Part shown: in pieces, positions 3,779 through 23,269 of the stretch
Numbering within the stretch: position 1 is the stretch's first letter
How the letters are laid out: the number at the start of each line of letters is the position of its first letter
Sequence record: NZ_CP145916.1
DNA from: a plasmid
Direction: 5' to 3' (one strand)
Length of the DNA: 64,000 bases
Notes under the pieces: generated by a model
What the model saw: only the letters and a program-made list of their open reading frames with translations
The model's database searches: none
What the model was told of the DNA's origin: nothing
Position numbers and translations under genes: made by a program

Positions 3779-3820
3779 AGATAAGAAGAGAAAATAAAGA
3801 GATAAGAAGAGAAAATAAAA
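3779..3820. repeat. Tandem direct repeat, 2 x ~21 bp (AGATAAGAAGAGAAAATAAA)
   Basis: Seen directly in the sequence, inside a ~1.1-kb non-coding stretch (3000-4080). Confidence 0.6.
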
Positions 3821-4084
3821 GAGGGTGCAGGGATGCGGAGTTTCAGCCATAAAAAAGGTAAAGGAAAAGACAGGTTTCTCAGCGCGTTAGTCTTTTATCG
3901 CTATATTGCATGTTGGTTTAATTTATCCATAAATGTCGCTGTGATAAAAATAAAAATGAACAATGAAAAGGGTAGGGGGAGAATGTCCCTTGCCGATAAA
4001 ACTGTTCCCGGTTTGTTATTTCTCTGCCCGCTGTTAAAAGTTGAAAGTTGATAACTTTGCAGTAAAATGCCGTTATCATATATA

Positions 4085-4100
4085 CTGTATAAATGTACAG
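4085..4100 (+). promoter_or_regulatory. LexA (SOS) box CTGTATAAATGTACAG for umuD
   Basis: Perfect CTGT-N8-ACAG motif 17 bp upstream of the umuD 5'-fragment ATG, followed by the SD aaggagag. Confidence 0.75.
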
Positions 4101-4116: not shown

Positions 4117-4209
4117 ATGTCACTAAAACCTATGAAATCAGCCCCTGACACCAAAGAAACTATCCCTTTCTTTGGCGAGCTCGTACCCGCAGGTTTCCCT
4201 AGCCCAGCG
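4117..4209 (+). pseudogene. umuD: umuD/mucA-like 5' fragment (N-terminal ~31 codons), interrupted by element insertion
   Basis: Encodes MSLKPMKSAPDTKETIPFFGELVPAGFPSPA, matching the MucA/UmuD N-terminus (…IPFY…ISAGFPSPA) including the Ala-Gly cleavage site. The reading frame then runs into foreign sequence and stops at 4245. Confidence 0.75.
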
Positions 4210-4675
4210 CTTTTCCCATATTGCTCTTTTTTGTCAATGTTCTGAAATCTATTAATAAATAACGAAAAAATAATAAGATAGTAAGATAAATCTCGTTCAT
4301 ACCTACTTTTACGGCGTTGACAACTATCACTCGGTCGAGTTTTTTCACTGATCCCCGCTGGGATCCCCTAATTGGTTGCCTTAGCGCTCATCCGAGCAAA
4401 GTTGAGTTAGGCTAGTTAACTAAATAATATAAATGGCCTTGTCCGACTCAGGCGAGACGGAACAACTTCGGTGGCCTCGATAAGCGCTGGCCCACTCCGA
4501 ACCGTGAGAGTTTTTAAACAAACTGGTAAAGCAGACGCAATTCTCTTTCACTCGAAGCTGCTTTAAACCGCAGGTCGCGACCCATAACAGACGCTAATTC
4601 TTTAATCGATATTCGTTTTGATGTATCATCGCGAGCAGGAAACACCTTTCTTTATATCTAGGAAAAAACTATCGT

Positions 4676-5539
4676 ATGTACTCCAAATTTGTTGTTTTTG
4701 TATCGCTGTTAAGCAGCTTAACCCTCAGCATTCCTGCCAACTCTTCTCCAGACCTGATAGTCAACAGCATCAAAGAGGTAGAGCAAAACCTGGGTGCTAA
4801 AGTAGGAGTCTCAATCTACAGCGTTTCTGATGGTTACCTTTGGCATTACAACGGCGATTCACGTTTTCCGTTGATGAGCACCTTTAAAACTCTTGCATGT
4901 GCGAAATTGCTCCACGATGTTGAAACGGCGAAGCTGTCGATTGATCGATCTGTGAAGATTGAGGAACAAGACCTTATTACTTGGTCGCCGATAACAGAAA
5001 AGCTTGTTGGAGAGAGCTTTTCCCTCAAGCAGGCTTGCACGGCTGCAATGGTTATGAGTGACAACACAGCGGCTAATATAGTACTGGACGGTATTAGTGG
5101 CCCATCTGAATTGACCTTGTTCATGAAAGAACTCGGTGATGAAGTAACGCGACTGGATCGTATAGAGCCTCATTTAAATGAAGCGCGAAGCGGGGATGAG
5201 CGTGATACAACAACACCTAACGCGATTGTAAAAAGCCTCGGGAAACTGCTTTATGGCGAGAAACTCTCAAGTGGCTCTAAAGAACAATTAATTGAATGGA
5301 TGGCTGGCAACAAGGTGTCCGATAGCTTGTTGCGTTCAGTGCTACCAGAGGGGTGGTCAATTGCTGATAGGTCGGGTGCTGGTGGTTTTGGGTCTAGGGG
5401 AATCACCGCTGCGATTTGGTCAAATGAACAGCAGCCATTAATTGTTGCGATATATCTCACCCAGACTGAAGCTTCGTTTGACGAGAGAAATAAAGCTATT
5501 GCCAAAATAGGTAGAGAAATTTTCGCTTCTTATAACTAA
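4676..5539 (+). CDS. blaCARB-like: Class A beta-lactamase, CARB/PSE (carbenicillinase) family, divergent
   Basis: Has STFK, SDN, RLDRIEPxLNE and RDTTTP motifs, and RSG in place of KTG (LLRSVLPEGWSIADRSGAGGFG), as in PSE-1/CARB-2. Roughly half the residues differ from CARB-2 as recalled from memory. Signal peptide present. Confidence 0.85.
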   Translation: MYSKFVVFVSLLSSLTLSIPANSSPDLIVNSIKEVEQNLGAKVGVSIYSVSDGYLWHYNGDSRFPLMSTFKTLACAKLLHDVETAKLSIDRSVKIEEQDLITWSPITEKLVGESFSLKQACTAAMVMSDNTAANIVLDGISGPSELTLFMKELGDEVTRLDRIEPHLNEARSGDERDTTTPNAIVKSLGKLLYGEKLSSGSKEQLIEWMAGNKVSDSLLRSVLPEGWSIADRSGAGGFGSRGITAAIWSNEQQPLIVAIYLTQTEASFDERNKAIAKIGREIFASYN

Positions 5540-5859
5540 GGCAACTTGGCGGGTACTAAGCACCTCAGCATCATAAGATGAGAGGTGTTCTTTCAATCTT
5601 CCTTTATAGCGGCAGCTAAATCGCAGCTAAAGACATCGATCAGGCCGCTCCGTATGTCCGCATTGTGCCGACTCCGGTATATGCGCAGGAAAATCATCTA
5701 ACGTCCGGTTCCGGAAATTTCAGTTGGCTCTGTTAAAGCAACAGTGAGCGTATGCCCTCTCCCCCTTTAACGCTGCTCCTCAGAGACGGCTATACGGTAG
5801 TTATCTGCGGCCGTAGTTGAGCAGTGTGGTCATTTAGCAGTATCTCGCGCTATAAAAAA

Positions 5860-5875
5860 CTGTATGTATATACAG
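5860..5875 (+). promoter_or_regulatory. LexA (SOS) box CTGTATGTATATACAG within a 36-bp palindrome
   Basis: Perfect CTGT-N8-ACAG motif at 5860-5875. It is embedded in the palindrome CTATAAAAAACTGTAT-GTAT-ATACAGTTTTTTATAG (5850-5885), 50 bp upstream of the 5925 ORF. Confidence 0.75.
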
Positions 5876-5924
5876 TTTTTTATAGTAGGCTTATCTTGTA
5901 GAGCAAGGTGAGTGAGATCTCTTT

Positions 5925-8285
5925 ATGAGTCGGGTTTCCCCAAAAAGTTTTCCCCAAGGTATCATTACGAAAGGCCACACAGATAAGAATTTCCAGTTTC
6001 TGGTTCTGTCCGGTAATGTTTTGCTTCTAATTCAATCTCACCTTGCTAATTTACCGCCGTCCCAGCGGCGGAGCGCTAATAGGGCTGTGTTCTACTTCGA
6101 ATGTTTCCTGTGGCTAATCAACCATCCACCTATCACAAGCACTCTAGACCTTCGAACAAATGCTTTTCTGAGCATTCAGCGCCTTTTCTATGGCGCGCTT
6201 TACTCAAACTGTTTTCTGGCTGCTGAAGTAAAATACTCAGGCAGACAGAGACTTGTCCGGTATTTCTTTAAACTCCTCGCTGAGCTGTCTAAATCGTCTC
6301 CTATCAATATTTTTGTATATTCAGACCTTACAGATAGCCAGGTCCGAGAATGCATCGCTCAGTTTGAAGCTATTGGGATTGACCCTGTACGAGCAGCCAA
6401 GCTCATGGGGTGGCAAGTCGCAGACAGAAGCGCGAACTCATTTCGATTAAAGATGGGAGCCATCTTCGATGTTTTTGGGCCTGATTTTACGATGGAATTA
6501 CACCAGGAGAGTAAGAAGCACGCCTTGGCTCATAGTCATTATAGTAACTACGCTAATGTGGTCTCTCGATTTGATGATTTTCTGCGCTGGTATGACGATG
6601 ATCCGATAGACAGACCTTCCTTAAACGCTCACGTGCTCCAAGATCCAGTCTTTGTATATCAGCTTTTCTGGAGCTTTCAGCGCTGGCATTTCGAAGGGTA
6701 CTCCGAGCGGAGCCAAACCCAACCGACGGAACGGGTGTTGGCAAACCTTCAGCGCCAATGGATCAGAATCATCTGTTGGGCAAAGTCTGTTCTGGTTAGC
6801 GGAGGGCTTATGTGTTCCCCGCTTGGCGATGTGTGGCCCGAAGGGAGCAAAAAGCTCACTCGATTCCTCCATGAAGTAGGCCACCATCGATACGCTGATG
6901 GTGAATCCCTTGTATCACAAAAGCTTTTGACCCAGATCCCACTGTCTGTCACAGATAAGGAGGCAACGGAGCTTCTATTCAGACAGATCGAAGACGACTT
7001 CAATAAAGTCGTTCGGTGGGCTCGACGGGAGATTGATCACATAGCTCATCGTTTGAACGTTATTGATCAGGCCTGCGATCAAGGGGATCTGATAACGCTA
7101 GGTTCTCGAATATCTGCTCGGGCTTATGGCCAGCCTGTGATGGGGATGAACAGCCTTATCAGAACTGTAAAAGAAACCCACAACGGATTTGCAATCATCG
7201 ACCACGCTATGCGCGGCCACTTGGTAAGCGCAACAGGGAGTTCTTTTTCAACATCGGAGTTAGCGGCGAATCTGGCTATGCCGACGAAGTATGCGATTGC
7301 TCCCATCGCTCTCTGGCTAGTAGCGCAGCATCCCGTTCTGACCGAGGCATCTCTATTGAAATGCGAGTTATTCGACCGAAACGGTAAGCGAACCGGCTTT
7401 GTTAAGACCGACTCTGGATCTGTGCTTGTTGTGAAGAAAAACCGGAAAGGGAAGCAACAGGAGGTTGTACTGAGCGACGACGCAGCTTCGGTGGTCGAGC
7501 TGCTTATCCAGATCACGGCCCCGGTTAGGCGCTATCTCAAGGAGAAAAGGGATGATGCCTGGCGACGATTGTTCATCGTCGCGGGTGGTCAGGGCTTTCA
7601 GGAACCTTACACTTTCACAAACCAGACCAGCTTCGCCAAGATCCTCCGGCAGAAAGCCTTTATACAAGCTCATAGCGCCGAGTTAGGAGACATGGTCTCC
7701 GTATTGTCGCTGGCCCGGATAAGGGCTACCGCAGGTGTTCTCGTCTACCTCAAGTCGTTAAGCATAGAGAAAATGGCAGAGTCACTAGGCAACTCGAAAC
7801 GAGTCGCCATGAACCATTATCTGCCGCCTACCATCATGCAGTTTTTCCAAGAGCGGTGGGTCAGGATTTTCCAAAACGCGGTGATTGTCCACGCTATGAA
7901 GGACTCTCCTTATCTGCTTGATGCAACGGACTTTAGCAGCATGAGTGAGTTGGATATGTTTCTAGAGGCGCATGCCCTTCGAACGCCGCCTGAAGAACCC
8001 GAACAGCTGAGTAGTTCCTCTGAGCAAATATCTGGTTCGTCAGATCCAGAGATCGTTATTTCTATCGATGAAGGCGTTCTTGGTGTGCTCCTCTCGCTAA
8101 AAATGGCCGTTGAGCAAGCTGGCCCACGTGCGGCGGGAACGGCTGTGTACTGGAGCCAGTTCGCAGCGAAGATAGAGGCTCACATTGAATCTGATGGTTA
8201 TCTAGATCCATATATCCGCGGTTGTCTAGTTAAGGCTAAGGGGATAGCGAATCCTCAACAGTTTGAGGGTCTAGTCTATGGATGA
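5925..8285 (+). CDS. Large tyrosine-recombinase-fold protein, possibly catalytically degenerate
   Basis: The C-terminal region (LSLARIRATAGVLVYLKS…LGNSKRVAMNHYLPP) resembles the R…(H)xxR…Y box of phage integrases, but the conserved His is absent. First gene of an overlapping four-gene operon. Confidence 0.5.
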   Translation: MSRVSPKSFPQGIITKGHTDKNFQFLVLSGNVLLLIQSHLANLPPSQRRSANRAVFYFECFLWLINHPPITSTLDLRTNAFLSIQRLFYGALYSNCFLAAEVKYSGRQRLVRYFFKLLAELSKSSPINIFVYSDLTDSQVRECIAQFEAIGIDPVRAAKLMGWQVADRSANSFRLKMGAIFDVFGPDFTMELHQESKKHALAHSHYSNYANVVSRFDDFLRWYDDDPIDRPSLNAHVLQDPVFVYQLFWSFQRWHFEGYSERSQTQPTERVLANLQRQWIRIICWAKSVLVSGGLMCSPLGDVWPEGSKKLTRFLHEVGHHRYADGESLVSQKLLTQIPLSVTDKEATELLFRQIEDDFNKVVRWARREIDHIAHRLNVIDQACDQGDLITLGSRISARAYGQPVMGMNSLIRTVKETHNGFAIIDHAMRGHLVSATGSSFSTSELAANLAMPTKYAIAPIALWLVAQHPVLTEASLLKCELFDRNGKRTGFVKTDSGSVLVVKKNRKGKQQEVVLSDDAASVVELLIQITAPVRRYLKEKRDDAWRRLFIVAGGQGFQEPYTFTNQTSFAKILRQKAFIQAHSAELGDMVSVLSLARIRATAGVLVYLKSLSIEKMAESLGNSKRVAMNHYLPPTIMQFFQERWVRIFQNAVIVHAMKDSPYLLDATDFSSMSELDMFLEAHALRTPPEEPEQLSSSSEQISGSSDPEIVISIDEGVLGVLLSLKMAVEQAGPRAAGTAVYWSQFAAKIEAHIESDGYLDPYIRGCLVKAKGIANPQQFEGLVYG

Positions 8286-10401
8286 TAGCAGCGCGCTACC
8301 TCGCGAATTGGACTTCATAACGCGATCAGTCGATGCGGATCTAGGACTATTCCGAAGCGCTGAATGGCTCAATTCGAAGTTCGATGACCCAGTATGGAGC
8401 GCTCGTTTTGCCGAAAATGGCAAGAGAGACACTGTTATTGATTTCAGGGTTAGGCTCGATGATGGGCTACTGCTCACCCACCCAAGACATCACAACCTTT
8501 TGGAAAGCATAAAGGCATATTTATGTCTGTCGTCCCATCCGTTGGCCACCGGAGGCAGCCAGCTTGCCCCGAAGACGGTACAGCAAAGGGTTCGTACGAC
8601 CTTAGGTATCATCGACTACTTTCTCCTGAGAGCCGAGCATTTCCAACTGGCATCCCATCAGTTCAAGCTAATTACGCCGCATGACATAACTGAGTTCATG
8701 GCTGTGTTGGCTACTGATCAGTACGCTAAGAACAATCTCTACGCTGCGCGTGAAGAGCTACAGCGTTTCCTTCGCCTCAACAGCCATCAGGTTACGAAGC
8801 TGGAGACACAGTACGTTCTATCAAAGGTTCCTGGAATCGCTATTGTTGATGATGTAGATGAGAGCAACCTTGGCTTATCAGAGTCGGAGATTGTTGCGGC
8901 TAGGATTTTTCTGTGGATCAACGGAAACTACAAACGCATACCGATTAAGGCGGGTAGTCATGGGCATTCATTTTTTAGTCATCAAGTTTCTCCAAACAGT
9001 ATCTACTCTGAAATTTATCATGAGCGAACTTTAGTGACGCCTAAATTCCGGGGGCTGGTGCTGGACGAGCTCCACTTTAGCCCATCCGAGAAGACCTTTA
9101 GAGAGTATCCCATGGTTTCGTCCATGGTTCTGTATGATGATCCACTTCCCTCTGAGGCTGGGGTTGATTTCTACCGACAATCGCTTAAACGGATGGAACT
9201 CCTTAAGCTCTGTGGGCTGGACCATATCAACCATCTTTCGCTAACAGCCTTGGATAATAGAGCTTTCCTCGGGCAACTTAAGATGAAGGGCACCGGGCGT
9301 TACCGGTCGCTGCCTCGGGACGTCGTATTTTCATCGTTTCGGAACGCAGTGGAGTTCTACTTAGATTTGGGTCAGGTCCTTATCGATGGTTATCTGGCCT
9401 TGGCGCGAGAGGCTGATGCACGTGGATGTGCCATCGGGGATTTGACCCAATCTGAAACGATAGAGCTGATCCCAAAGAGGTTGCGAGACATCGGAGTAAG
9501 TATCTGGGATCTCTCGGCAGATTTTCGCGGGCAGAACCGTGGAGGCGGTAGCGCTCTGTTTTTTAAGCGGTTCAGAGAGAATGAGGGACTGCTCCAGCTA
9601 ATTGAGGTACTTTATGGTGCCATCTGGATAATACTCGCTGCGCTTAGTGCCAGACGTTCTGGAGAGCTTAGGGATCTTAAGGCAGATACCTGCCTTGTTA
9701 AGAAGTCCCATGGCTATTATTTACAGTTTGACTTGCGGAAACGGAACTTCGGCAAGACTCGTGAACAGGTCCTTCGTCCCATTCCCAATGTCGCGGCCCG
9801 GTGCATTCTGAGCTTGGGTGATCTTCGTCAGAAGCTCTCCTTGCTTAGTTCAGTTACGATTTCAGATAGGCTGTTCAGCAAGCCTCATTATCGCGAAGTT
9901 GGCCTGTCTGCGATGGGTTCAGTAGACGCGGCCAAGGTGCTAAACCGCTTTTCTGACTATTTCGAAGTCCAACAGGACGCTACTGGGCATCGTTATTACA
10001 TTCGTACCCATCAACTTAGACGCTTCTTCGCTATGACATTCTTCTGGGCCGGCGGATTTGGCGGCCTAGACACACTTCGGTGGTTTTTGGGTCATACGAA
10101 TGTCGAGCATGTTTATCACTACATCACAGAGACCGTTCCAGGAGAGGTGTTGCGAAGAATCGGTGCCGAATACGCATCTGATGCACTTCTCATAGGGCAG
10201 AGCAACACAGAAGATCTGGGTAATCTCCTACGTGAGCGTTACGGATTGTCATCATTTTCCATCATGCAGTCGGATGAAGTCGCAGACTATATCGAAGACC
10301 TAATGATGGAAGGGTTGCTAAAGATAGAGCCAGTCTTCTTCGACACACCGACAGGAAAGCGCCATGAGATCCTCTTTAAAATCACCGGAGAAAATTCATG
10401 A
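8278..10401 (+). CDS. Tyrosine recombinase (phage-integrase family), 707 aa
   Basis: Box I ARRSGELRDL, HxxR in RTHQLRRFFAMTF, and the nucleophile Tyr in LGHTNVEHVYHYIT. The start overlaps the upstream stop. Confidence 0.75.
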   Translation: MDDSSALPRELDFITRSVDADLGLFRSAEWLNSKFDDPVWSARFAENGKRDTVIDFRVRLDDGLLLTHPRHHNLLESIKAYLCLSSHPLATGGSQLAPKTVQQRVRTTLGIIDYFLLRAEHFQLASHQFKLITPHDITEFMAVLATDQYAKNNLYAAREELQRFLRLNSHQVTKLETQYVLSKVPGIAIVDDVDESNLGLSESEIVAARIFLWINGNYKRIPIKAGSHGHSFFSHQVSPNSIYSEIYHERTLVTPKFRGLVLDELHFSPSEKTFREYPMVSSMVLYDDPLPSEAGVDFYRQSLKRMELLKLCGLDHINHLSLTALDNRAFLGQLKMKGTGRYRSLPRDVVFSSFRNAVEFYLDLGQVLIDGYLALAREADARGCAIGDLTQSETIELIPKRLRDIGVSIWDLSADFRGQNRGGGSALFFKRFRENEGLLQLIEVLYGAIWIILAALSARRSGELRDLKADTCLVKKSHGYYLQFDLRKRNFGKTREQVLRPIPNVAARCILSLGDLRQKLSLLSSVTISDRLFSKPHYREVGLSAMGSVDAAKVLNRFSDYFEVQQDATGHRYYIRTHQLRRFFAMTFFWAGGFGGLDTLRWFLGHTNVEHVYHYITETVPGEVLRRIGAEYASDALLIGQSNTEDLGNLLRERYGLSSFSIMQSDEVADYIEDLMMEGLLKIEPVFFDTPTGKRHEILFKITGENS

Positions 10402-10976
10402 AGAAAGCATCACGGCAGGTGTCTGCTCAGCTTGAGATTAGCAACAGATCTGTTCTTTCTCGCGTTGAGTATCTCGAATCGATTATTCACTCACCCGCCG
10501 AGCATCAAGAAAACATAACACTTTTGATCGCTTTGAAGAGCCAAAGTGGACTTGCAAAGCTGGCGGTTAGCGAAGCTTTTATTTCTCCTATGTCTCTCAA
10601 TACGCTTAAGAACAGAGCGAATGACATACTCCCTGGTGGGTTTACGACTATTGATCACCTGAGACGCCAGGCCGCAAAAGCTATTCACGATTCAACCGTA
10701 GTCAAGCCTTCATCGTCCTCTATAACCAAGCAGGACCTCAAAGATAAGATTAAGGCTCAGGAAAGGACCATCTCTCAGTTGTGGGATGAAATCGCACTGG
10801 TTACGAATGTTTTTAGAGAATCAGTAACACTCGCCCAACAGTTTGCCGAGAAATGCCCAGACCCGGCAGATCTGATCCTTTTCAAAAAGCGCCGTAGAGA
10901 GCTGCTTTTAATGTTCTCATTAAGCAAGCGGCCTCAGACGCCTTTACATGAGAGCCCGTCCAATGCCGAAGGATGA
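10398..10976 (+). CDS. Small accessory protein of the recombinase operon
   Basis: 192-aa ORF whose start and stop overlap the flanking recombinase genes (ATGA). Hydrophilic and probably helical. Confidence 0.5.
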   Translation: MKKASRQVSAQLEISNRSVLSRVEYLESIIHSPAEHQENITLLIALKSQSGLAKLAVSEAFISPMSLNTLKNRANDILPGGFTTIDHLRRQAAKAIHDSTVVKPSSSSITKQDLKDKIKAQERTISQLWDEIALVTNVFRESVTLAQQFAEKCPDPADLILFKKRRRELLLMFSLSKRPQTPLHESPSNAEG

Positions 10977-12369
10977 GAAACTCTATAATCTAACGAGCGA
11001 TGTTTTCCGATTACCTTACGGGGTTGATCGAAATAGCCACGTCCTCAGCGTCAGAGCTGATAACATTCCGCTTCTCTGTTGGCCCGATGGCAGGCCGTGC
11101 ACCGAGGCGAACCTATATATGCTGCACTGTTTTGAGCGTGGACTTTCCCGTAAGGAAGGCGGTGGGACACTTACTCAATATGCCAAGCTTCTTTCACACC
11201 TTATTCGCTTTTGCTTTAACAACAACTACTCATTCATAGGGTTGACTGATTCTCGCTTTTCACTATTCATCAGAACGCTCCAAGGAGAAATGGATCCACG
11301 AAAACCAGAGCAGAGAAAACGGAGAGCAGCCCATGTGGCAAACATAGGGAGAACCTGCCTCGGCTTTTTAGGATTCGTTGGAGAACTCTATCTAGAACCG
11401 TCGTTCGTCGGCGCCGCAGGAACGATCAGGGCTGAGACGAAGGAGTTCAAGCTGGCTGGTCAGAGAAAGCAGATAGTCCATACCTATTGGCATCACCATT
11501 CCTTTCCTAACCCCGAGCCTCCAACACGGCGCTTACCTATCAATTCTACAAATATCGCAAAACTGATCGAAGTGATTCCGGATGTGAGCACGACGACCTA
11601 TCAGAGAAGACGGCGTTTCATTCTGGTCAAGCTTTTGGAGATTACTGGGGCAAGGCGAGTTGAGATCGCGAACATCAGAGTCGAAGACATCTATAACGCG
11701 AGGAAGATGAAGCAAGAGCCTGTTCTCAAGGTCTTCACCGCCAAGCGCTCGGGAGGAAGGGAAGAGTACAGATACTTGCCGGTTTCCAAAATGGACCTTG
11801 AATTGATCGTAAATTTCATCGAAAAGTTCCGACACCGGATCATTAAGAAGACCATCGGTAGCGCTAGTGACTTGGGCTATCTGCTGATTTCGGAAAGTAG
11901 TGGACTAAGGCTCGCTACCGAGACGCTGACGAATGAACTACTGCTGCTTGCCAAGGCTGCCAAGATCGAAGAGCAAGCCTGCGCACACATGTTCCGGCAT
12001 AGATTCATTACCAAGCTTTTTGTGGCTTTGATTGAGCAACATGAATTCGAAAATGGGGACGATTTTCGGCGTGCTCTCCTGGATGGTGAGACCCTCAAGA
12101 GAAAGGTTCAAGAGTACACGGGGCATACTTCGATCAGTAGTCTTGAACCGTATATTCACTTGGCTTTCGAGGAAGTGGCGAGGTTTGGAAGTACCTTAGA
12201 CCTGATTAAAGCAAAGCTTGCCGTTGAATCGCTACGGTCCAATCTCAAGGACATTGCTATCGAACTCAGACACGGCAGGAGTCCTACTGAATTGAGCGCC
12301 CTCCTCCGCGACTATATCGACTTGGCGCTGGAGGAACTCAGTAGCGCCTCAATTTCTACAGAGAGCTGA
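10948..12369 (+). CDS. Tyrosine recombinase (phage-integrase family), 473 aa
   Basis: Box I GARRVEIANIRVEDI, HxxR in HMFRHRFIT, and the nucleophile Tyr in GHTSISSLEPYIHLA. Confidence 0.75.
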   Translation: MRARPMPKDEKLYNLTSDVFRLPYGVDRNSHVLSVRADNIPLLCWPDGRPCTEANLYMLHCFERGLSRKEGGGTLTQYAKLLSHLIRFCFNNNYSFIGLTDSRFSLFIRTLQGEMDPRKPEQRKRRAAHVANIGRTCLGFLGFVGELYLEPSFVGAAGTIRAETKEFKLAGQRKQIVHTYWHHHSFPNPEPPTRRLPINSTNIAKLIEVIPDVSTTTYQRRRRFILVKLLEITGARRVEIANIRVEDIYNARKMKQEPVLKVFTAKRSGGREEYRYLPVSKMDLELIVNFIEKFRHRIIKKTIGSASDLGYLLISESSGLRLATETLTNELLLLAKAAKIEEQACAHMFRHRFITKLFVALIEQHEFENGDDFRRALLDGETLKRKVQEYTGHTSISSLEPYIHLAFEEVARFGSTLDLIKAKLAVESLRSNLKDIAIELRHGRSPTELSALLRDYIDLALEELSSASISTES

Positions 12370-12375
12370 CAAGAT

Positions 12376-12753
12376 ATGGGCAGAATGAGTTCATATGGGA
12401 ATCCTGCTGCTGGGTGGGAAGAGGCTGAACTTAATCTTCATACGCTGGTGGTTACTCATCCAGCCAGCACGTACTTCTTGCGCGTGACAGGTGACTCCAT
12501 GCAGGATGCTCGGATACATTCTGGTGACGTGCTGGTGGTTGATCGCTCAGAAACTCCAGAGCAGGGTAGTATTGTTGTTGCCAGCATCGACAACGAATTT
12601 ACAGTCAAGAAACTCATCTTGCGGCCACGTTCATGCCTTATGCCGATGAACCCGGCATACCCACCTATCTATTTTGACCCTGAAAGTAACGACGTTGAAA
12701 TTTGGGGTGTGGTGACTTACTCATTAATGAAGCACAAAAAATGTATGGCCTGA
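12376..12753 (+). CDS. umuD: UmuD/MucA-like 3' portion, re-started by element-derived sequence (UmuD'-like truncated product)
   Basis: …HPASTYFLRVTGDSMQDARIHSGDVLVVDRS…EFTVKKL… (S24 peptidase Ser-Lys dyad). It lacks the N-terminus, which lies at 4117-4209. The new Met sits 6 nt after the recombinase stop. Confidence 0.8.
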   Translation: MGRMSSYGNPAAGWEEAELNLHTLVVTHPASTYFLRVTGDSMQDARIHSGDVLVVDRSETPEQGSIVVASIDNEFTVKKLILRPRSCLMPMNPAYPPIYFDPESNDVEIWGVVTYSLMKHKKCMA

Positions 12754-14006
12754 TCGACATTAATTCCTGCTACTGTGCCTGCGAGCAAGCATTCAGGCCC
12801 GATCTTGCTGGTAAACCCGTAGTAGTTTTGTCAAACAATGATGCCAGCTGCATAGCCCGTAACAAGCAGGCGAAAGCCCTTGGTATAAAAATGGGCGAGC
12901 CATTCTTTAAAATCAAAGATCTCATAGAACGGAACAATGTCGCTGTTTTCAGTTCAAACTATGCCCTTTATTCCGCATTTAGTTCCCGGTTTGCATCTGT
13001 TATAGAGTCACTGACTCCGCGTAGCTCAGTGTATTCAATCGATGAACTTTGGTTTGATGCCACGAATATCACTGGTTTAATGACTCTTGATGCCTATGGC
13101 CGCATGTTGCGAGAAGAGGTACAGCGTCAGACAACGCTTACTTGTGGTGTTGGGATAGCACCGACAAAAACACTCGCGAAATTGTGTTCTCATGCTTCAA
13201 AAACCTATCCGGCAACTGGCGGAGTTGTCGCGCTTGATGATGTTACCCGTTTAGAAAAGCTGATGCGGCTTGTGCCCGTTGAAGACGTGTGGGGTGTTGG
13301 CCCACGGCTGGGTAAAAGGCTTCGGTTTATGGGAGTGGAAACCGCGTTTCAACTATCCTGCCTTGATCCTGTTCGGGTACGAAAGCAGTTCAATGTTGTC
13401 CTTGAGCGTACCGTCAGGGAACTCCGGGGGGAGCCTTGCATGGCGCTTGACGAAAATGATGTGATGAAACAGCAAATAGTCGTTTCCCGCTCCTTCGGTG
13501 AGCGAGTCACCAACCTTCATGAAATGCAGCAAGCCATAACCGATTATGCGGCTCGCGCTGCCGAAAAACTCCGGCAAGAAAAAGGGTATGTCTCTGTAAT
13601 TGGTGTTTTTATACGCACCAGCCCCTACGCAGTAAATGATGTACCTTATTCCAATCAGGCTACTGAAATGCTGGTGACTCCCTCCAACGACAGCAGGGAT
13701 ATTATTAATGCTGCACAACGCGCATTAAAACGGATCTGGAGGCCAGAAGTCCGTTATGCTAAAGCAGGTGTGATGCTTTGTGATATTCGCGAGCGTGAGC
13801 CTCAACTTGATTTGTTCACTGAATCGGCCCAGTACCGCAACAGTGAAAATCTCATGCAATTACTGGATACTCTCAACAAGCAGGGTAGACACAATTTGTT
13901 TTTTGCCGGACAAGGTATAAACCCCGTTTTCGCAATGAAGAGAAATATGCTATCCCCTGCATATTTGACTAGCTGGGATGATTTACCAAAGGTTAGGTTA
14001 GGATAA
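12741..14006 (+). CDS. umuC: Y-family DNA polymerase V catalytic subunit UmuC/MucB-like
   Basis: MYGLIDINSCYCACEQ… start typical of UmuC. Overlaps the umuD stop. ~420 aa. Confidence 0.85.
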   Translation: MYGLIDINSCYCACEQAFRPDLAGKPVVVLSNNDASCIARNKQAKALGIKMGEPFFKIKDLIERNNVAVFSSNYALYSAFSSRFASVIESLTPRSSVYSIDELWFDATNITGLMTLDAYGRMLREEVQRQTTLTCGVGIAPTKTLAKLCSHASKTYPATGGVVALDDVTRLEKLMRLVPVEDVWGVGPRLGKRLRFMGVETAFQLSCLDPVRVRKQFNVVLERTVRELRGEPCMALDENDVMKQQIVVSRSFGERVTNLHEMQQAITDYAARAAEKLRQEKGYVSVIGVFIRTSPYAVNDVPYSNQATEMLVTPSNDSRDIINAAQRALKRIWRPEVRYAKAGVMLCDIREREPQLDLFTESAQYRNSENLMQLLDTLNKQGRHNLFFAGQGINPVFAMKRNMLSPAYLTSWDDLPKVRLG

Positions 14007-14247
14007 GCCCACTAACCATCAAAAAGACATAATTTTTCCTTGGTGTTTCACTTCGCCCCCCTCACTCGTCCGGCAGCGCAATTTGGTTCTCAAGGTTACG
14101 TGTTCAAAAACAGCTATAAGATTATGGTCACGCGCTGTAAGCCATGCCAGAACTAAATAAATTGGATTTTTTCGTAATGAAAATATAGCGACGAACGTTG
14201 CAAAACTGTTTTATTGCTACAATTCCCCTTGTTGGCTAAAATACATA

Positions 14248-14263
14248 CTGTATAAACTGACAG
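14248..14263 (+). promoter_or_regulatory. LexA box CTGTATAAACTGACAG
   Basis: CTGT-N8-ACAG motif 12 bp upstream of the tus-like ATG. Confidence 0.6.
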
Positions 14264-14274
14264 GGGTATCCGCT

Positions 14275-15159
14275 ATGGATTTAAAAAAAACATTTGAACA
14301 GCTTACGGACGATTTACTCGCCCTGAAAATGCTGATCAGCGGTAGCTCGCCTCTGTTTTCCCAAGTCTCCGACATTCCGCCCGTCCTGCGGGGGGATGAG
14401 CATTTACCCATTTCGTATGTTGCCCCTGATCACCTGTACGGCCATGAGGCCATTCAGAAGGCGGTTGATATCTGGAGTGACCTGCACATCAAGCATGATT
14501 TTTCCCAGAAGTCTGCACGTCGTGCATCCGGTGTTCTGTGGTTTCCATCAGAAGATAATGCGTTTACGGTCGAGCTCGTTCGCCTGCTGAGCCAAATCAA
14601 TGCCCTGAAAAAGAGTATTGAGACTCACATCATTACGACCTACCAGACACGTAGCGCACGATTTGAAGCCCTGCATAATCAATGTGCCGGGGTGCTGACT
14701 TTACATCTTTACCGTCAGATCCGCTGGTGGAAGGATGAGCATATATCAGCCGTGAGATTTAGCTGGCAAGAAAAGGAGTCTTTGCTCATTCCTGACAAAG
14801 CTGAGTTACTCGTGCGTATGAGCAAGGAAGGTAGGGAGGATGGGAAAAAAGAGGTGCCGCTTGCGTTGCTGATGAAGCAGATCGTTTCCGTACCGGAAGA
14901 ACGACTGCGTATAAGGCGTCGTCTCAAGGTTCAGCCATCGGCTAACATTTCGTTCCGTAGCGAGCAACACCCGACTGGGAAGCTGACAATGGTCACGGCT
15001 CCGATGCCCTTCATTATTATTCAGAATGAACGGCCAGAGGTGAAAATGCTCAAAATCTATGATGCGAATGAGCGAATCAGCCGTAAGCGACGTAACGACA
15101 AAGTGCATACGGAAATCCTCGGTACGTTTCATGGCGAAAGTATCGAAGTGATTGCCTGA
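14275..15159 (+). CDS. tus: Tus-like replication terminus-binding protein
   Basis: Colinear similarity to E. coli Tus (EDEH(N/L)P; VLTLHLYR ~ LITLNAYR; RLKVQPSA ~ PVKVQPIA; APMPFIIIQNE ~ PTPLIALINRD). Confidence 0.65.
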   Translation: MDLKKTFEQLTDDLLALKMLISGSSPLFSQVSDIPPVLRGDEHLPISYVAPDHLYGHEAIQKAVDIWSDLHIKHDFSQKSARRASGVLWFPSEDNAFTVELVRLLSQINALKKSIETHIITTYQTRSARFEALHNQCAGVLTLHLYRQIRWWKDEHISAVRFSWQEKESLLIPDKAELLVRMSKEGREDGKKEVPLALLMKQIVSVPEERLRIRRRLKVQPSANISFRSEQHPTGKLTMVTAPMPFIIIQNERPEVKMLKIYDANERISRKRRNDKVHTEILGTFHGESIEVIA

Positions 15160-15195
15160 TAAGGTTTTTCTGGACATTATCCTTTGGTAGTATTA

Positions 15196-15211
15196 CTGTA
15201 TATGTATACAG
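15196..15211 (+). promoter_or_regulatory. LexA box TACTGTATATGTATACAGTA (perfect palindrome)
   Basis: Consensus SOS box 19 bp upstream of the dinI-like gene. Confidence 0.75.
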
Positions 15212-15229
15212 TAATTTACCGGGGGGTAT

Positions 15230-15463
15230 ATGTTACGTATAAATGTGTGTTTCGATGCCAGCAAGAAAGTGCCTGCTAAAATCCAGCAGGCATTACGAGC
15301 TGAGATAGAGAAAGAGATCTTGTCTAATTACGAACGTGGTGTGGTAAGTGTGGGGAAGGGAAGCAGCGCAGAAGTGTCGATCAGTGGCGTTGATGATGAT
15401 GAAAAAAAAGTAATAATGCAGAAGCTTGAAGACATCTGGCAAAGTGACAGCTGGTTGCCTTGA
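15230..15463 (+). CDS. dinI: DinI-like SOS protein
   Basis: 77 aa. Aligns with DinI (…VSV…KEDKQ…EILQETWES.DDWF ~ VVSVGKGS…DDDEKKVIMQKLEDIWQSDSWLP). Preceded by a LexA box. Confidence 0.65.
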   Translation: MLRINVCFDASKKVPAKIQQALRAEIEKEILSNYERGVVSVGKGSSAEVSISGVDDDEKKVIMQKLEDIWQSDSWLP

Positions 15464-15485
15464 TCGTTTTATTTTTTGCATGTGA

Positions 15486-15511
15486 ACTGGGCTTCTGGCC
15501 CAGTTTTTTTT
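15486..15511 (+). terminator. Rho-independent terminator (CTGGGCTTCTGGCCCAG plus T9)
   Basis: GC-rich hairpin followed by a T-run after the dinI-like gene. Confidence 0.6.
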
Positions 15512-15531
15512 TGCCCTAAATCTGCACGATA

Positions 15532-15541
15532 GCTATTCGAC
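15532..15541 (+). promoter_or_regulatory. CTATTCGACC promoter-like motif, copy 1
   Basis: Conserved 10-mer followed ~13 nt later by GTGTG, then an ORF start. Confidence 0.45.
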
Positions 15542-15649
15542 CCTCATCCTGAGTGTGTGACCATATTGGACTTACAGATAGGGCTGGCTGTCACGCCCAC
15601 CAGCGGAACCTCATCATTTATCACCATTTCATTAAGTAAAGGAGGTTAT

Positions 15650-16000
15650 ATGAAAAACGATTTCTCTCTCAACATGGGTAGTAAAATGGATGCCATTTTC
15701 AACCAGATGTTTTCAGCGCCAAACTCTTCTTTTCAAAACGCGCCTGCCGCTGGTGGCACGAATGCACGACGCAAAAAAAAGGACATTATCCGCCTGACTG
15801 TTCGCTCCAAAACCGGAGGAACCAACCTTGTTACCATAGCCAAAGATACGCCAGTATTCACGCCCAAACAGGTTAGTGATCTGGCTATTGGCGAACATGG
15901 CCATCTCGACATTTTCATCATCGACTATGGTACTCATCGCACCTTAAATACGAAAAACATCCAGCATGAATCCCCGCTTGAACGGGAAATAATTCAATAA
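15650..16000 (+). CDS. hypothetical protein
   Basis: ATG preceded by the SD ggagg. The ORF track's 15557 start is probably too long. Confidence 0.45.
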   Translation: MKNDFSLNMGSKMDAIFNQMFSAPNSSFQNAPAAGGTNARRKKKDIIRLTVRSKTGGTNLVTIAKDTPVFTPKQVSDLAIGEHGHLDIFIIDYGTHRTLNTKNIQHESPLEREIIQ

Positions 16001-16030
16001 AACTGCTTGATGTAATTGATATTTTCTAAG

Positions 16031-16053
16031 CTGCCTTTGGGCAGTTTTTTTTT
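16031..16053 (+). terminator. Rho-independent terminator (CTGCCTTTGGGCAG plus T9)
   Basis: Hairpin plus T-run. Confidence 0.55.
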
Positions 16054-16072
16054 CAATTTTTTCTCTGCTTTG

Positions 16073-16082
16073 CTATTCGACC
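16073..16082 (+). promoter_or_regulatory. CTATTCGACC promoter-like motif, copy 2
   Basis: Same motif and downstream GTGTGCC. It precedes the 16107 ORF. Confidence 0.45.
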
Positions 16083-16106
16083 CCCTGATCAGGTGTGCCA
16101 ATCTAA

Positions 16107-16469
16107 TTGAAAGACAATCAACACATGAGACAGAAAATGACAGGGACTAATGATTCTAACTATCAGCCAGATGAGCTAAAGGCTATTGCATCGTTTGACG
16201 CACTTGGCATCTTTGCGACGCTAAACAAACTGACTGCATTAAGTAACGTCGCACAAGCTCGCCTCGCGGAGTGTTTCGCACAAAACGACTCTATTCCTAG
16301 TGGATTCACTGCCCTCGATTTTCTTACTCCAGAAGAGCGGGAAGAACATCACATCCTGCGCCTGTCTCTTGCGATCTGCGTCGATGAACAGAGTGAAGCA
16401 AATAAGCGCGTGAATGCGCGTCTGAAAGCCCGACATGAGGAATATAAGGCAAAACGGGGTGCCGTATAG
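16107..16469 (+). CDS. hypothetical protein
   Basis: 120-aa ORF. The true start may be an internal Met (16126 or 16136). Confidence 0.4.
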   Translation: MKDNQHMRQKMTGTNDSNYQPDELKAIASFDALGIFATLNKLTALSNVAQARLAECFAQNDSIPSGFTALDFLTPEEREEHHILRLSLAICVDEQSEANKRVNARLKARHEEYKAKRGAV

Positions 16470-16545
16470 AGAAAGCATCTTCTATCAGCAAGGAACGTCA
16501 GAAAAGGACTGAAACAGTGAAGTATCAGAAGAGGGGGGTATCCCT

Positions 16546-16809
16546 GTGAAAATAGGACAGCGACAACAATCAATTCTTTCCGCTATCTATAAGAATGGTG
16601 GGAAATTCTGGCCCAGTTGTGGAATTGTCTGGCTAAATTTCAGCACGACGAGAACTATTTTAGATTCTCTCGTAAAAAAACGACTCCTGACCGATAAAGG
16701 GAATTGTCGATACACAATCACGGAGAAAGGCAAAGAGCTCGGTGATCCTGACCGTTATTTCAAAGAACTTTTAAACAAACAGTTAAAGTCACGCAAGAGA
16801 AGCTCTTGA
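16546..16809 (+). CDS. Small putative winged-helix DNA-binding protein
   Basis: 87 aa, basic C-terminus, GTG start after a G-rich SD. Confidence 0.35.
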   Translation: MKIGQRQQSILSAIYKNGGKFWPSCGIVWLNFSTTRTILDSLVKKRLLTDKGNCRYTITEKGKELGDPDRYFKELLNKQLKSRKRSS

Positions 16810-16841
16810 GCTGACTTTGAAACCGTAATGATGGAGACAGA

Positions 16842-17030
16842 TTGATGATGAAAAGCATTATGCCCTCTCGCTCGGTAACGTCATTGTTGGCTCGTGAAGT
16901 ATCTCTTCTCGGGGAGAAAATGGGTGAGGCGATGACGCAATGTCGGAACAGCAAAGAAGAGGCTGCTCTTGAAGATGCGCTGCAAAATTTGGCCCGTGTT
17001 AAATCCACTCTGGACAAAGCCGTTAATTAA
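16842..17030 (+). CDS. small hypothetical protein
   Basis: 62-aa ORF. Confidence 0.3.
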   Translation: MMMKSIMPSRSVTSLLAREVSLLGEKMGEAMTQCRNSKEEAALEDALQNLARVKSTLDKAVN

Positions 17031-17066
17031 CGGCTTTACCTCATATTATTTTAAAGGATAGGTGTC

Positions 17067-17411
17067 GTGGAAAAGTTTCTGGAGTACGTAGGCGTCATGG
17101 AGCACCACTACGGAAGTGCTGTAGCTGCGCAGTTTATCAATGCCAATGCTGCCATTATTGCTGCTGATGATTCTGATGATGATTCCGAGTCATATTCGAC
17201 CCGTGTTGAAGAGATCACATCCCTATTGGATGCGGTCAATAAAGCTGGTGGTGTACCTGATCACAGGCTTGTTGTAGAGCGTGTTAGCCCGAACTCTACC
17301 CGCGTTATTTTGAATGGCCCTCATGGTATGGTCTGGCGTTGCTATGTATTTCAGGACGATTTTATGTTCTGCTTTACTCAAACGCTGGCAAGTGTTTTGC
17401 CTGCAAAATAA
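17067..17411 (+). CDS. hypothetical protein
   Basis: 114-aa ORF. Confidence 0.4.
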   Translation: MEKFLEYVGVMEHHYGSAVAAQFINANAAIIAADDSDDDSESYSTRVEEITSLLDAVNKAGGVPDHRLVVERVSPNSTRVILNGPHGMVWRCYVFQDDFMFCFTQTLASVLPAK

Positions 17412-17425
17412 TGAGAGGGGTATTA

Positions 17426-17761
17426 ATGTCACCGATAAAACTGTTTTTGGTCTGCCTGCTTGCTTTTAGCTCTGCGGCTATCGCGTCAGATAACGCCGGT
17501 GGGAAACCAGAAAAAAAAGCAGGAATTCCGCTCGATGTAAAACAGTACAGTGAAGTGGGTAAATTCGACGTGGCTAACCCCACATCACTGAGCGTGGTCA
17601 AGTTCAATGGTAAGACGTATGTCTTGTCTAAAATGCCTGATCGTCGCTTGTACGGCTTGGAGTTAAATGTGGATAAGCAAGGTAGGGAAGTTCTCTGCGG
17701 TAAGTTGGGGGCCAGCCTGAAAATGACGAACTGCTATTACATTTATTTTCGCGAAAAATAA
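17426..17761 (+). CDS. Secreted hypothetical protein (signal peptide)
   Basis: MSPIKLFLVCLLAFSSAAIASDN… N-terminal signal. SD gagagggg. Confidence 0.5.
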   Translation: MSPIKLFLVCLLAFSSAAIASDNAGGKPEKKAGIPLDVKQYSEVGKFDVANPTSLSVVKFNGKTYVLSKMPDRRLYGLELNVDKQGREVLCGKLGASLKMTNCYYIYFREK

Positions 17762-17828
17762 CTGGCCCTGAAAGTGTTCAACGAATAACTATACGTGACA
17801 CTGTAACGTTTATTAAAAGCCGGTTTGA

Positions 17829-17838
17829 CTATTCGACC
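17829..17838 (+). promoter_or_regulatory. CTATTCGACC promoter-like motif, copy 3
   Basis: Motif plus GTGCCGTG and a taatact -10-like element. It precedes the 17884 ORF. Confidence 0.45.
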
Positions 17839-17883
17839 TCATTGGGTGCCGTGTAATACTTTTATTTTAGCCACAAAGCAGGA

Positions 17884-18087
17884 ATGGAAAGAATGAAAAT
17901 ATCTCTGGTCAACGGTGTTGTTCTCAATGTCAGCCGCTTTAATGCCGATTTCTCATTGAAGTCACAAGCAGACGTGATGAAAGAGTCTGCTGAGCGTTGC
18001 TCAAGTTTATTTACTGCTGGTGCGCTGGTGGATGAACGCTATCGCATCGTGGCGCAATTTGATGCTTTCGGTACTGTACTCGCTTAA
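17884..18087 (+). CDS. small hypothetical protein
   Basis: 67-aa ORF downstream of motif copy 3. Confidence 0.35.
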   Translation: MERMKISLVNGVVLNVSRFNADFSLKSQADVMKESAERCSSLFTAGALVDERYRIVAQFDAFGTVLA

Positions 18088-18140
18088 TCATATGCTATAT
18101 GTTTAAGTAATTATCATTTAACGCATCTTGGGGGGGTGCC

Positions 18141-18530
18141 ATGAAAGAGATTTCCAAAGATGTTGCTATCGTATCGTTGATCCACCGCGACTGGTCGTGC
18201 GAGGCGATTTACTACCGGGTAAAAACAATCCCTATGCCGGGTTCTCCTGCTGGTGGTAATCATCTTTTCGTCATCATTGAAGACAAGTGCGAGTTGATGG
18301 ATAACGAAAAAAGTCGTGAGAGTTTTTCACGAATTATCTTATCCCGTTATCCCGGCATCCCTGCGAAGCGTTTGCATCTCATCTTCTTTGTTTCCTGTGT
18401 CGAAAAACCGAACGGAATGACTGTCAAAATGTATAATTTTGACAGAAATGATAATAGGCAGTCCGTGATTAAACCCGATCCTGTTGACTTCTCTGAGAAT
18501 ACAGCTGTGTGCGCAATGGTAATGTTTTAA
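18141..18530 (+). CDS. hypothetical protein
   Basis: 129-aa ORF with a G-rich SD. Confidence 0.4.
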   Translation: MKEISKDVAIVSLIHRDWSCEAIYYRVKTIPMPGSPAGGNHLFVIIEDKCELMDNEKSRESFSRIILSRYPGIPAKRLHLIFFVSCVEKPNGMTVKMYNFDRNDNRQSVIKPDPVDFSENTAVCAMVMF

Positions 18531-18666
18531 TCTTGCTTGTCATCTCATTGAAAGGGGCGTTTAATTCGCCTCTTTTCATTTCTAAAGTCTCGAAATTAAA
18601 ATGCATTACCCATTCAGTTTCTACCCTCTGAACATCCTGATAAAACTTAAAAAAAGTGTCTCTCAA

Positions 18667-18676
18667 CTATTCGACC
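18667..18676 (+). promoter_or_regulatory. CTATTCGACC promoter-like motif, copy 4
   Basis: Motif plus GTGCCTCGTG and a gattatat -10-like element. It precedes the 18733 ORF. Confidence 0.45.
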
Positions 18677-18732
18677 CCCCTGTGCCTCGTGAGATTATAT
18701 TTGTGTAGCCAATAAAATAATGGAGCACACAA

Positions 18733-19170: not shown

Positions 19171-19217
19171 CCGACTCGGGGCGCTAAGCCCCATTCTCAT
19201 TGATTTAAGGAGCTGCC

Positions 19218-19559: not shown

Positions 19560-19778
19560 TTGCAGGGGTGACGTATGGAATGTTTAATGAAAAAGCGTGT
19601 TAAATTAAGAGCAAGAATTGCTCGCGCAAGAAGAAATGTTAAGTTCTTTTATTTTGATCACATCCGATATCAGGGTGGCGGGTTTACTCATAGTGAATTG
19701 AAAAGTGCGTTATCTGAAAAGCACCTTTGTGATTCACTGATTAAGCCATTCGACCGATAATGTAGGAGCGGCCATTTA

Positions 19779-23250: not shown

Positions 23251-23269
23251 TCGCATTACCGGGGGGTAT

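Follow-up and report, generated by a model that had tools for sequence, protein, structure and literature searches.

The open reading frame (ORF) at positions 4676-5539 (plus strand) of the plasmid sequence NZ_CP145916.1, of which we analysed a stretch of 64,000 nucleotides referred to in the following as the window, is, as judged from its complete identity with the gene of the element R997, the already named beta-lactamase gene blaHMS-1, which was first seen in 1977, and not a new allele. Taking all observations together we consider it very probable that this gene represents the only cargo of an 8.2-kb site-specific transposon which targets umuD, and that its transcription would mainly start at a promoter inside this element's left arm. 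The complete ancestral context of blaHMS-1 is thereby identified. The gene itself, which codes for a named narrow-spectrum beta-lactamase overshadowed by blaNDM-1 on the same plasmid, matters very little.

Identity of the beta-lactamase gene

The ORF starts with ATG, comprises 864 nt and codes for a protein of 287 aa. A motif scan of this protein places STFK at residue 68 (S70 in ABL numbering), SDN at residue 128 (ABL 130), the omega-loop glutamate (ABL 166) within the sequence RLDRIEPHLNE, and an R-S-G triad at residue 232 (ABL 234-236) within ADRSGAGGFG, where it takes the place of KTG or KSG. In addition, RDTTTP and LLRSVLP blocks are found. The Ambler class A motifs (S70-x-x-K73, S130-D-N, E166 and K/R234-S/T-G) are thus all present. 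The product matches Pfam Beta-lactamase2 (E = 3.7e-38) and scores 296.8 bits against the NCBIfam model bla_class_A (NF033103), the cut-off of which is 200; its best matches in the PDB are structures of PSE-4 (E = 3.7e-95, 321 bits). By these matches the gene is an intact class A beta-lactamase gene of the RSG type with CARB/PSE as the nearest named families. HMS-1 would act as a secreted penicillinase combining the S70/K73/S130/E166 machinery with the R234-S-G triad typical of carbenicillinases. A preliminary description of this DNA had given exactly these ORF coordinates and all of these motifs; its remark that the signal peptide is unrelated to that of CARB-2 agrees with the observation that the N-terminal region barely aligns with PSE-4.

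A megablast search with the ORF in 72,556 plasmid records returned five matching records. The beta-lactamase gene of pR997, the integrative and conjugative element (ICE) R997 of the SXT/R391 type (NZ_KY433363), is identical to that of the window in 864 of 864 nt, while four Providencia plasmids carry the gene at 99.7-99.8% identity. Correspondingly, the protein encoded by R997 (WP_025441399.1) is 100% identical over 287 aa. The exact protein is, moreover, present on 342 public assembly contigs from several genera. R997 is an IncJ element of Proteus mirabilis from India, 1977. Its single beta-lactamase gene is the HMS-1 gene according to Ryan et al. 2017, HMS-1 being the enzyme for which R997 served Matthew, Hedges and Smith as the defining source in 1979 (PMC5561048). 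Li et al. 2016 found the gene in nine Proteus ICEs, citing GenBank KX228735 and Vibrio parahaemolyticus UCM-V493 (PMC5124997), a review of 2020 calls HMS-1 a known resistance gene (PMC7046756), and a survey of 2023 includes blaHMS-1 in its resistance-gene tables (PMC10654056). Secondary reports credit HMS-1 with resistance to ampicillin, piperacillin, ticarcillin, ticarcillin-clavulanate and cephaloridine, its activity being likened to that of TEM and SHV (PMC5561048, PMC7046756).

The preliminary description had regarded the gene as a new divergent allele and had named a 100% match to a numbered CARB allele as the finding which would remove its novelty. The identical gene of R997 is such a match in spirit, although under the name HMS-1 rather than under a CARB number, so that the call of a novel CARB enzyme has to be corrected to HMS-1. 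Since the reference hidden Markov model sets hold no HMS-1 label, this enzyme will continue to be flagged as new.

Relation to carbenicillinases and likely origin of the gene

The NCBIfam model which fits HMS-1 best is carbeni_gen (CARB/PSE/RTG, NF000481). The score of 403.6 bits, however, stays below the curated cut-off of 430, and the same holds true for the models PSE (343.0 bits, cut-off 580), CARB (324.0, cut-off 600) and RTG (294.5, cut-off 600). HMS-1 does possess the arginine at ABL 234 (RSG or RTG) which is characteristic of CARB/PSE/RTG enzymes; membership in the CARB family is not supported, since the scores fall short of the curated cut-offs. Thus, in terms of these models, HMS-1 shows carbenicillinase-like motifs, yet is placed outside the curated CARB family, which speaks against the assignment to CARB/PSE made in the preliminary description. 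Its estimate of roughly one residue in two being different from CARB-2 was close, as tblastn yields 55.3% identity over residues 32-286; for the mature protein the identity amounts to 55.5-55.9% with CARB-4 and to 54.9% with GMA-1. With the CARB/PSE enzymes (PSE-4/CARB-1, PSE-1/CARB-2, CARB-4) HMS-1 shares the class A fold, the STFK, SDN, E166 and R234-S-G motifs and 55-56% identity over the mature protein. In contrast to these enzymes it is encoded on a tyrosine-recombinase transposon and not on an integron cassette, and we take it to belong to Bush group 2b rather than to 2c, the enzymes of which hydrolyse carbenicillin about as fast as benzylpenicillin.

GMA-1, which is found on SE-6945 and SE-Pda04Ya311 of Vibrio and Photobacterium, likewise belongs to class A, has a narrow spectrum and is of marine origin; it is 54.9% identical to HMS-1 and forms the small cargo of an element of about 7 kb with several tyrosine recombinases. 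At the level of minimum inhibitory concentrations, inhibitor combinations do not restore susceptibility in the presence of GMA-1, which resembles the reports on HMS-1 (PMC5561048, PMC7046756). Nevertheless, the two represent separate enzyme families, as HMS-1 scores 329 against the NCBIfam blaGMA model with a cut-off of 600, and the elements carrying GMA-1 show no detectable protein similarity to the carrier of HMS-1.

Among 5.8 billion proteins searched, the relatives of HMS-1 at 60-73% identity come from Motiliproteus, Amphritea, Thalassotalea, Colwellia, Pseudoalteromonas and Marinobacterium, and no relative is found between 99% and 73%. A natural progenitor of the gene with at least 90% identity was considered as well; none was found, the best candidate reaching 73%. 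The distribution of these relatives makes a marine gammaproteobacterium the most likely donor, and not Vibrio, Acinetobacter or Proteus. Of the origin proposed in the preliminary description, namely a separate acquisition from a Vibrio-, Acinetobacter- or Proteus-like donor, the first part is supported by related elements with other cargo (see below), whereas the second is at odds with nearest relatives from marine genera. That the gene is AT-rich compared with the recombinase module is true, but the difference is modest, with a GC content of 44.9% versus 49.0%; at third codon positions the gene reaches 43.8% versus 48-55% for the four module genes.

The carrier element

Comparison with the uninterrupted umuD gene of the plasmid Rts1 reveals an insertion of 8,199 bp. 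The blaHMS-1 element occupies approximately positions 4204-12408 (8.2 kb) and contains blaHMS-1 plus four further genes on the same strand. The target reads TAGC-CCTGCT-GCTGG in Rts1 and TAGC-CCAGCG-CTTTTCCCATATTG ... TTCATATGGGAAT-CCTGCT-GCTGG in the window. On the left side, the core or spacer CCAGCG (4204-4209; possibly 7 bp, CCAGCGC) is not native to the umuD gene of the plasmid and is followed by the left terminal inverted repeat CTTTTCCCATATTG (4210-4223, plus strand). On the right side, the terminal inverted repeat TTCATATGGGAAT (12390-12402, plus strand), a second ATATGGG copy of which is present at 12374, is followed by the core CCTGCT (12403-12408), which is native to the Rts1-type umuD target. 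The ends are inverted repeats of each other, though imperfect ones, and share the core TTCCCATAT. Upstream of the element remains a truncated umuD ORF of 42 aa (4118-4246, plus strand, stop codon at 4244-4246), the first 29 codons of which are native while the rest is provided by the left end of the element. The same 42-aa ORF is annotated at another locus carrying the element (L009).

Of the four genes downstream of blaHMS-1, all on the plus strand, the first (5925-8285) codes for a protein of 786 aa, here designated X, which has no match in Pfam or NCBIfam and for which a tyrosine-recombinase fold is predicted. An AlphaFold model calculated from 36 homologues has a mean pLDDT of 84.9, and each of its top 12 matches in the PDB is a tyrosine recombinase, namely XerH, XerA, VchIntIA, Cre or Tn1549 Int. 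The catalytic set is degenerate, with ARIR for HxxR and LGN for LGH; R600 and Y632 are kept and are invariant across the X family. As this family comprises 657 cluster representatives at 50% identity, the module defines a family of considerable size. X is followed by the large tyrosine recombinase IntL (8278-10401, 707 aa), in which the R..HxxR..H..Y motifs appear as ARRSGEL, HQLRR, LGH and YHY and which is 29-30% identical to annotated integrases. The next gene (10398-10976) codes for a small protein of 192 aa, whose position corresponds to that of TnpC, Srap and GinD beside the large recombinase. Neither IntL nor the small protein is matched by any Pfam or NCBIfam model. The last gene codes for IntS (10948-12369, 473 aa, or 468 aa if starting from the ATG at 10963), an ordinary tyrosine recombinase which matches PF00589 Phage_integrase with 47.5 bits as well as XerC/XerD-type models. 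Judged by the R-H-R-(H/W)-Y catalytic set and a Cre/XerD-like fold, IntS and, by its motifs, IntL qualify as tyrosine recombinases, as does X by its modelled fold only, given its degenerate catalytic set.

Relatives of the recombinase module with 76-89% nucleotide identity carry different cargo, which supports a separate acquisition of the beta-lactamase gene. In one relative of 86% identity a TetR-MFP-RND cluster is found in the slot of the beta-lactamase gene, bearing out the earlier view of this gene as the cargo of an element. In a copy from a metagenome-assembled genome (L020, 4415-9202) genes for TetR, a membrane fusion protein (MFP) and an AcrB-type resistance-nodulation-division (RND) pump are present in place of the beta-lactamase gene. 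In a copy from Hafnia psychrotolerans (L021, 16376-22130), IntS is separated from the conserved right end by about 5.7 kb.

Target specificity and movement between replicons

Ten further loci with an identical X protein (L007-L016) all show the arrangement bla-X-IntL-small(-IntS) within umuD or its homologue rumA. In each case the element separates a short 5' piece of umuD/rumA from the 3' part coding for Peptidase_S24, to which umuC or rumB is adjacent. The hosts are SXT/R391 ICEs of Providencia, Proteus, Morganella, Shewanella and V. parahaemolyticus; of the ten copies, one resides in the chromosome at a second umuDC locus, and another in an IncT plasmid similar to that of the window. All examined copies are inserted at one and the same umuD/rumA codon (GFPSP|A) and in one orientation.

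Alignment of the junctions reveals element ends which are identical everywhere, while the left and right cores of 6-7 bp differ in three independent insertions, the pairs in other copies being CCAGCC/CCAGCG and CCTGCA/CCAGCG. The left core CCAGCG of the window is the native core of SXT/R391 rumA, and the reconstructed empty rumA site ...TTCA-CCAGCG-CAGG... is found uninterrupted in three public records. Since this core is foreign to the umuD gene of the plasmid and equals that of rumA, it was evidently brought along from an SXT/R391 rumA. [quoted passage not shown] Such a course of events would make it a clean natural example of footprint-leaving movement between replicons, from the rumA gene of an SXT/R391 ICE into the umuD gene of an IncT plasmid.

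The copies of blaHMS-1 on R997 and on an IncQ plasmid are, by alignment with the window, truncated remnants of the complete element. In R997 (L001, 11530-13250) the remnant corresponds to positions 4204-5925 of the window and ends exactly at the ATG of X. Both agree in the coding sequence, in the upstream arm of 470 bp and in what follows the gene as far as 5925, and the left junction is found at the same codon of the umuD homologue. In contrast to the window, only the left end and the beta-lactamase gene are retained, the recombinase module being absent, and the remnant is located in rumA of an ICE, while the complete element of the window is located in umuD of an IncT plasmid. The remnant in the IncQ plasmid p2_000369 (L002, 2272-3693) corresponds to positions 4204-5627 and ends 88 bp past the beta-lactamase gene. 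It is inserted within sul2 at a look-alike of the umuD target, CCTATGCC|TTGT.

The whole element is also present, at 99.9% identity, in the marine bacterium Thalassolituus marinus (L018). This copy contains a 262-bp insert (8472-8734 of L018) resembling a miniature inverted-repeat transposable element with the terminal inverted repeats GGGAGCCTCTGAATAACTC, which is located between the candidate promoter and the ribosome-binding site of the beta-lactamase gene (see below). A literature search for elements inserted in umuD or rumA yielded nothing relevant, and a preprint on tmexCD-carrying SEs makes no mention of umuC or umuD.

Comparison with SE, Tn554, GInt and Tn6912

The element resembles the SEs in that it combines an ordinary recombinase, a large recombinase, a degenerate protein with a recombinase fold and a small auxiliary protein. 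Further features in common are short imperfect terminal inverted repeats together with a 6-bp core from the previous site, site-specific integration and the lack of mobilization genes. The gene order, however, is X-IntL-small-IntS instead of intA-tfp-intB-srap at the motif-C end; the module is placed at the end away from the cargo and transcribed outward, and the carried core lies on the cargo side. BLASTP of the module against the SE proteins of pAQU1 returned no match with Tfp or Srap and a single match of E = 0.026, confined to the catalytic region of recombinases, while hhalign gave a probability of 1.95% for the X family versus the Tfp family. In the PSI-BLAST survey of tfp and srap conducted by the authors of the SE work, V. 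parahaemolyticus CP007004.1 is represented by a block at 2.98 Mb only, and the HMS-1 element of that genome (0.76-0.78 Mb) is not listed. Gene order, BLASTP, hhalign and survey all speak against counting the element among the SEs. The order X-IntL-small-IntS does recur, at 28-35% identity, on megaplasmids of Pseudomonas aeruginosa.

Judged by its description, Tn554 (tnpA-tnpB-tnpC) shares with the HMS-1 element a small auxiliary protein encoded next after a large recombinase, a footprint of 6 bp copied from the previous site and a strong target specificity; in contrast, it has no counterpart of X and belongs to the Firmicutes. The GInts (ginABCD), again by description, resemble it in possessing three recombinase-like proteins and a small fourth one, all four of which are needed for GInt mobility. 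They differ in that ginABCD is placed at the 5' end and followed by the cargo and an AT-rich 3' end, and in that direct repeats of 10-17 nt flank them. The HMS-1 element, by contrast, has its cargo ahead of the module, with the small gene in the third and not the fourth position. In the portion of the ginC/ginD listing available, no CP007004 entry is included among the entries listed.

A catalogue-style paper of 2022 contains the name 'IME Tn6912' for a blaHMS-1 element, accompanied by no analysis (PMC9058013). Like the copies at L007-L016, Tn6912 is an integrative element with blaHMS-1 in an SXT/R391-type ICE (Tn6860 of Providencia rettgeri PROV275, CP059298). As far as that part of the source goes, the name comes without boundaries, target site or mechanism, and the likeness is one of description and not of sequence.

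From these comparisons we tentatively suggest, while regarding it as possible but somewhat improbable, that the carrier is the first member open to characterisation of a large, mechanistically undescribed family of tyrosine-recombinase transposons with four genes, and that its own lineage is wired to the SOS response in three ways, namely by its insertion site, by a LexA box of its recombinase operon and by a UmuD'-like fusion at its right end. Such a family may work in a manner similar to SEs, Tn554 and GInts without a detectable sequence relation to the SEs. The SOS wiring of the element and its relation to SE, GInt and Tn554 deserve a separate look.

Expression of blaHMS-1

Upstream of the element the window contains the umuD promoter region of the plasmid (4041-4102, plus strand), which consists of TTGAAA-16-TAAAAT (4041-4068) and the LexA box TACTGTATAAATGTACAGCT with the core CTGT-N8-ACAG (4085-4100). 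That the beta-lactamase gene is located downstream of a LexA-boxed umuD promoter, as stated in the preliminary description, is therefore confirmed. The distance of about 430 bp given there is not, since the 429 nt are those between the stop codon of the truncated umuD (4244-4246) and the ATG of the beta-lactamase gene; the LexA box ends 576 nt and the left junction of the element lies about 470 nt upstream of this ATG. A scan from the umuD promoter to the gene yielded no terminator-like site. A GAG-T6 motif near 4337-4346 was considered as an intrinsic terminator and dismissed, its stem-loop being too small.

Within the left arm a scan of positions 4206-4675 for strict consensus promoters found none. 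Scoring with a position weight matrix (PWM), however, reveals two candidates on the plus strand, each within the top 0.05% of the window, namely TTGAGT-17-TAATAT (4402-4430, score 11.16) and TTTAAT-17-TATCAT (4601-4629, score 10.87). The latter, the candidate promoter of the beta-lactamase gene, ends 47 nt before the ATG and is followed by the ribosome-binding site AGGAAA (4660-4665, plus strand). The same left arm travels with the gene in R997 and in the IncQ plasmid. The untranslated leader of 429 nt has a GC skew of -0.11 to -0.16 (C > G), and this composition could favour Rho termination of uncoupled transcripts. Against Rfam the leader gives sub-threshold noise only, and with a fold z-score of -0.03 its structure is not unusual.

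A LexA box precedes the left junction by 120-160 bp in rumA, in the umuD of the second chromosomal locus and in the IncT umuD. Owing to the site and orientation specificity of the element, the beta-lactamase gene thus comes to lie downstream of a LexA-boxed promoter in every context examined. From this arrangement SOS-dependent read-through into the gene, as put forward in the preliminary description, appears structurally plausible and would be more general than one plasmid. The main start of transcription would be a promoter within the left arm of 470 bp, with possible additional SOS-dependent read-through from the umuD promoter. As to whether the SOS response does contribute to the expression of the gene to some extent, the arrangement leaves this possible, although we lean against it.

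Assessment of alternative explanations

The gene might lack a promoter of its own and depend on read-through from the host gene, which would render it strictly SOS-inducible in umuD and rumA sites. Such an arrangement would fit that in 11 of 11 umuD/rumA insertions the gene points in the umuD direction, that its distance from the LexA box upstream is 120-160 bp plus 470 bp, and that neither a terminator-like site before the gene nor, in the strict scan, a promoter within 4206-4675 was found. Also the IncQ remnant within sul2 has the same direction as sul2, as deduced from the known order of genes in RSF1010, which is repA-repC-sul2. Yet the two PWM sites of the left arm, one of them just before the ATG, and a leader whose composition would favour Rho termination speak against it. 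Moreover, R997 was reportedly scored ampicillin-resistant in the 1979 survey, and its enzyme typed, without SOS induction. We therefore hold exclusive read-through to be unlikely. Still less do we believe that the gene is a functionless passenger, silent or irrelevant beside blaNDM-1 (53393-54205) and the blaOXA-10 integron of the same window; the ORF is intact with all its catalytic motifs, and is found identical on 342 contigs of several genera, and R997, in which it is the only beta-lactamase gene, confers ampicillin resistance. The notion of a new divergent carbenicillinase of the CARB/PSE type from a Vibrio-, Acinetobacter- or Proteus-like donor can draw on carbeni_gen as the best NCBIfam model (403.6 bits), on PSE-4 as the best solved structure and on the RSG triad and several PSE blocks in common. 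Given the 100% identity to the named blaHMS-1, by which the novelty is already refuted, the missed curated cut-offs (carbeni_gen 430, PSE 580, CARB 600, RTG 600), the identity of only about 55% to CARB-2, CARB-4 and GMA-1, and relatives at 60-73% which all belong to marine genera of the Oceanospirillales or Alteromonadales type, we consider it extremely improbable.

Several points nonetheless weigh against our preferred reading, that is, blaHMS-1 as the sole cargo of a umuD-targeting transposon with a promoter in its left arm. The RefSeq label of the protein is only 'class A beta-lactamase' and NCBIfam contains no HMS model; the link to the name HMS-1 is given by R997 as the type source with a single beta-lactamase gene and not by protein sequencing. 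The promoters of the gene are matches to a consensus only, and the movement of the element is deduced from a comparative footprint rather than from experimental transposition. Finally, as blaNDM-1 and blaOXA-10 are present on the same plasmid, any phenotypic contribution of HMS-1 is probably masked.

SOS-related features of the element

In addition to its location downstream of umuD promoters the element carries, as far as its sequence tells, SOS-related features which have not been described. A LexA box with a perfect CTGT-N8-ACAG, CTGTATGTATATACAG, is present at 5860-5875 (plus strand), 50 nt upstream of X. LexA boxes with other internal bases are found upstream of X, about 125 nt from the ATG, in Vreelandella, Pseudomonas saliphila and an uncultured gammaproteobacterium, the modules of which are 78-89% identical; at the three loci concerned the boxes are at 9861 (L019), 9864 (L020, the metagenome-assembled genome) and 9862 (L023). 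The retention of a LexA box upstream of X in these relatives suggests that the recombinase operon is under SOS control.

At the right end, an ATG and nine codons of the element are joined in frame with the 3' part of umuD, resulting in a UmuD'-like fusion ORF of 125 aa (12376-12753, plus strand), which is followed by an intact umuC (12741-14006). The product, MGRMSSYGN-PAAGWEE..., exceeds the cut-off of the NCBIfam UmuD model (PRK10276, 133.6 versus 110 bits). Its start is five residues past the site (Ala-Gly) at which self-cleavage is predicted, so that the cleavable N-terminus is missing and the product resembles the activated form UmuD'. For such a fusion protein RecA-mediated cleavage would be dispensable. 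At the right junctions in Thalassolituus (L018), the metagenome-assembled genome (L020) and Hafnia (L021) the same kind of fusion, M(G/A)RMSSYGN-PA..., is retained. Should all three SOS links hold, DNA damage, including that triggered by beta-lactams, would raise the expression of resistance, the mobility of the element and error-prone repair together.

Plasmid context

Apart from the element, the window matches IncT plasmids, namely Rts1 of Proteus vulgaris and plasmids of Providencia rettgeri, with 99.8-100% identity from 1 to about 4200 and from about 12400 to 30000. A multidrug-resistance region follows at about 30100-62000. It contains a class 1 integron with blaOXA-10, sul1 (38546-39382), ISCR1, armA (43877-44647), msr(E), mph(E), blaNDM-1, ble and groEL. 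The plasmid, hence, harbours three beta-lactamase genes, namely blaHMS-1, blaOXA-10 and blaNDM-1.

The window contains six CTGT-N8-ACAG sites, compared to 0.73 expected. LexA boxes of the IncT backbone are located at 14248-14263, just upstream of a gene for a Tus-like replication-terminus protein (14275-15159), and at 15196-15211, just upstream of a dinI-like gene (15230-15463); further ones are present at 34985 and 39756. Between the rep region and umuD, at approximately 3780-3825, a sequence of about 22 bp (GAGATAAGAAGAGAAAATAAAG-like) occurs twice in tandem and may be iteron-like.

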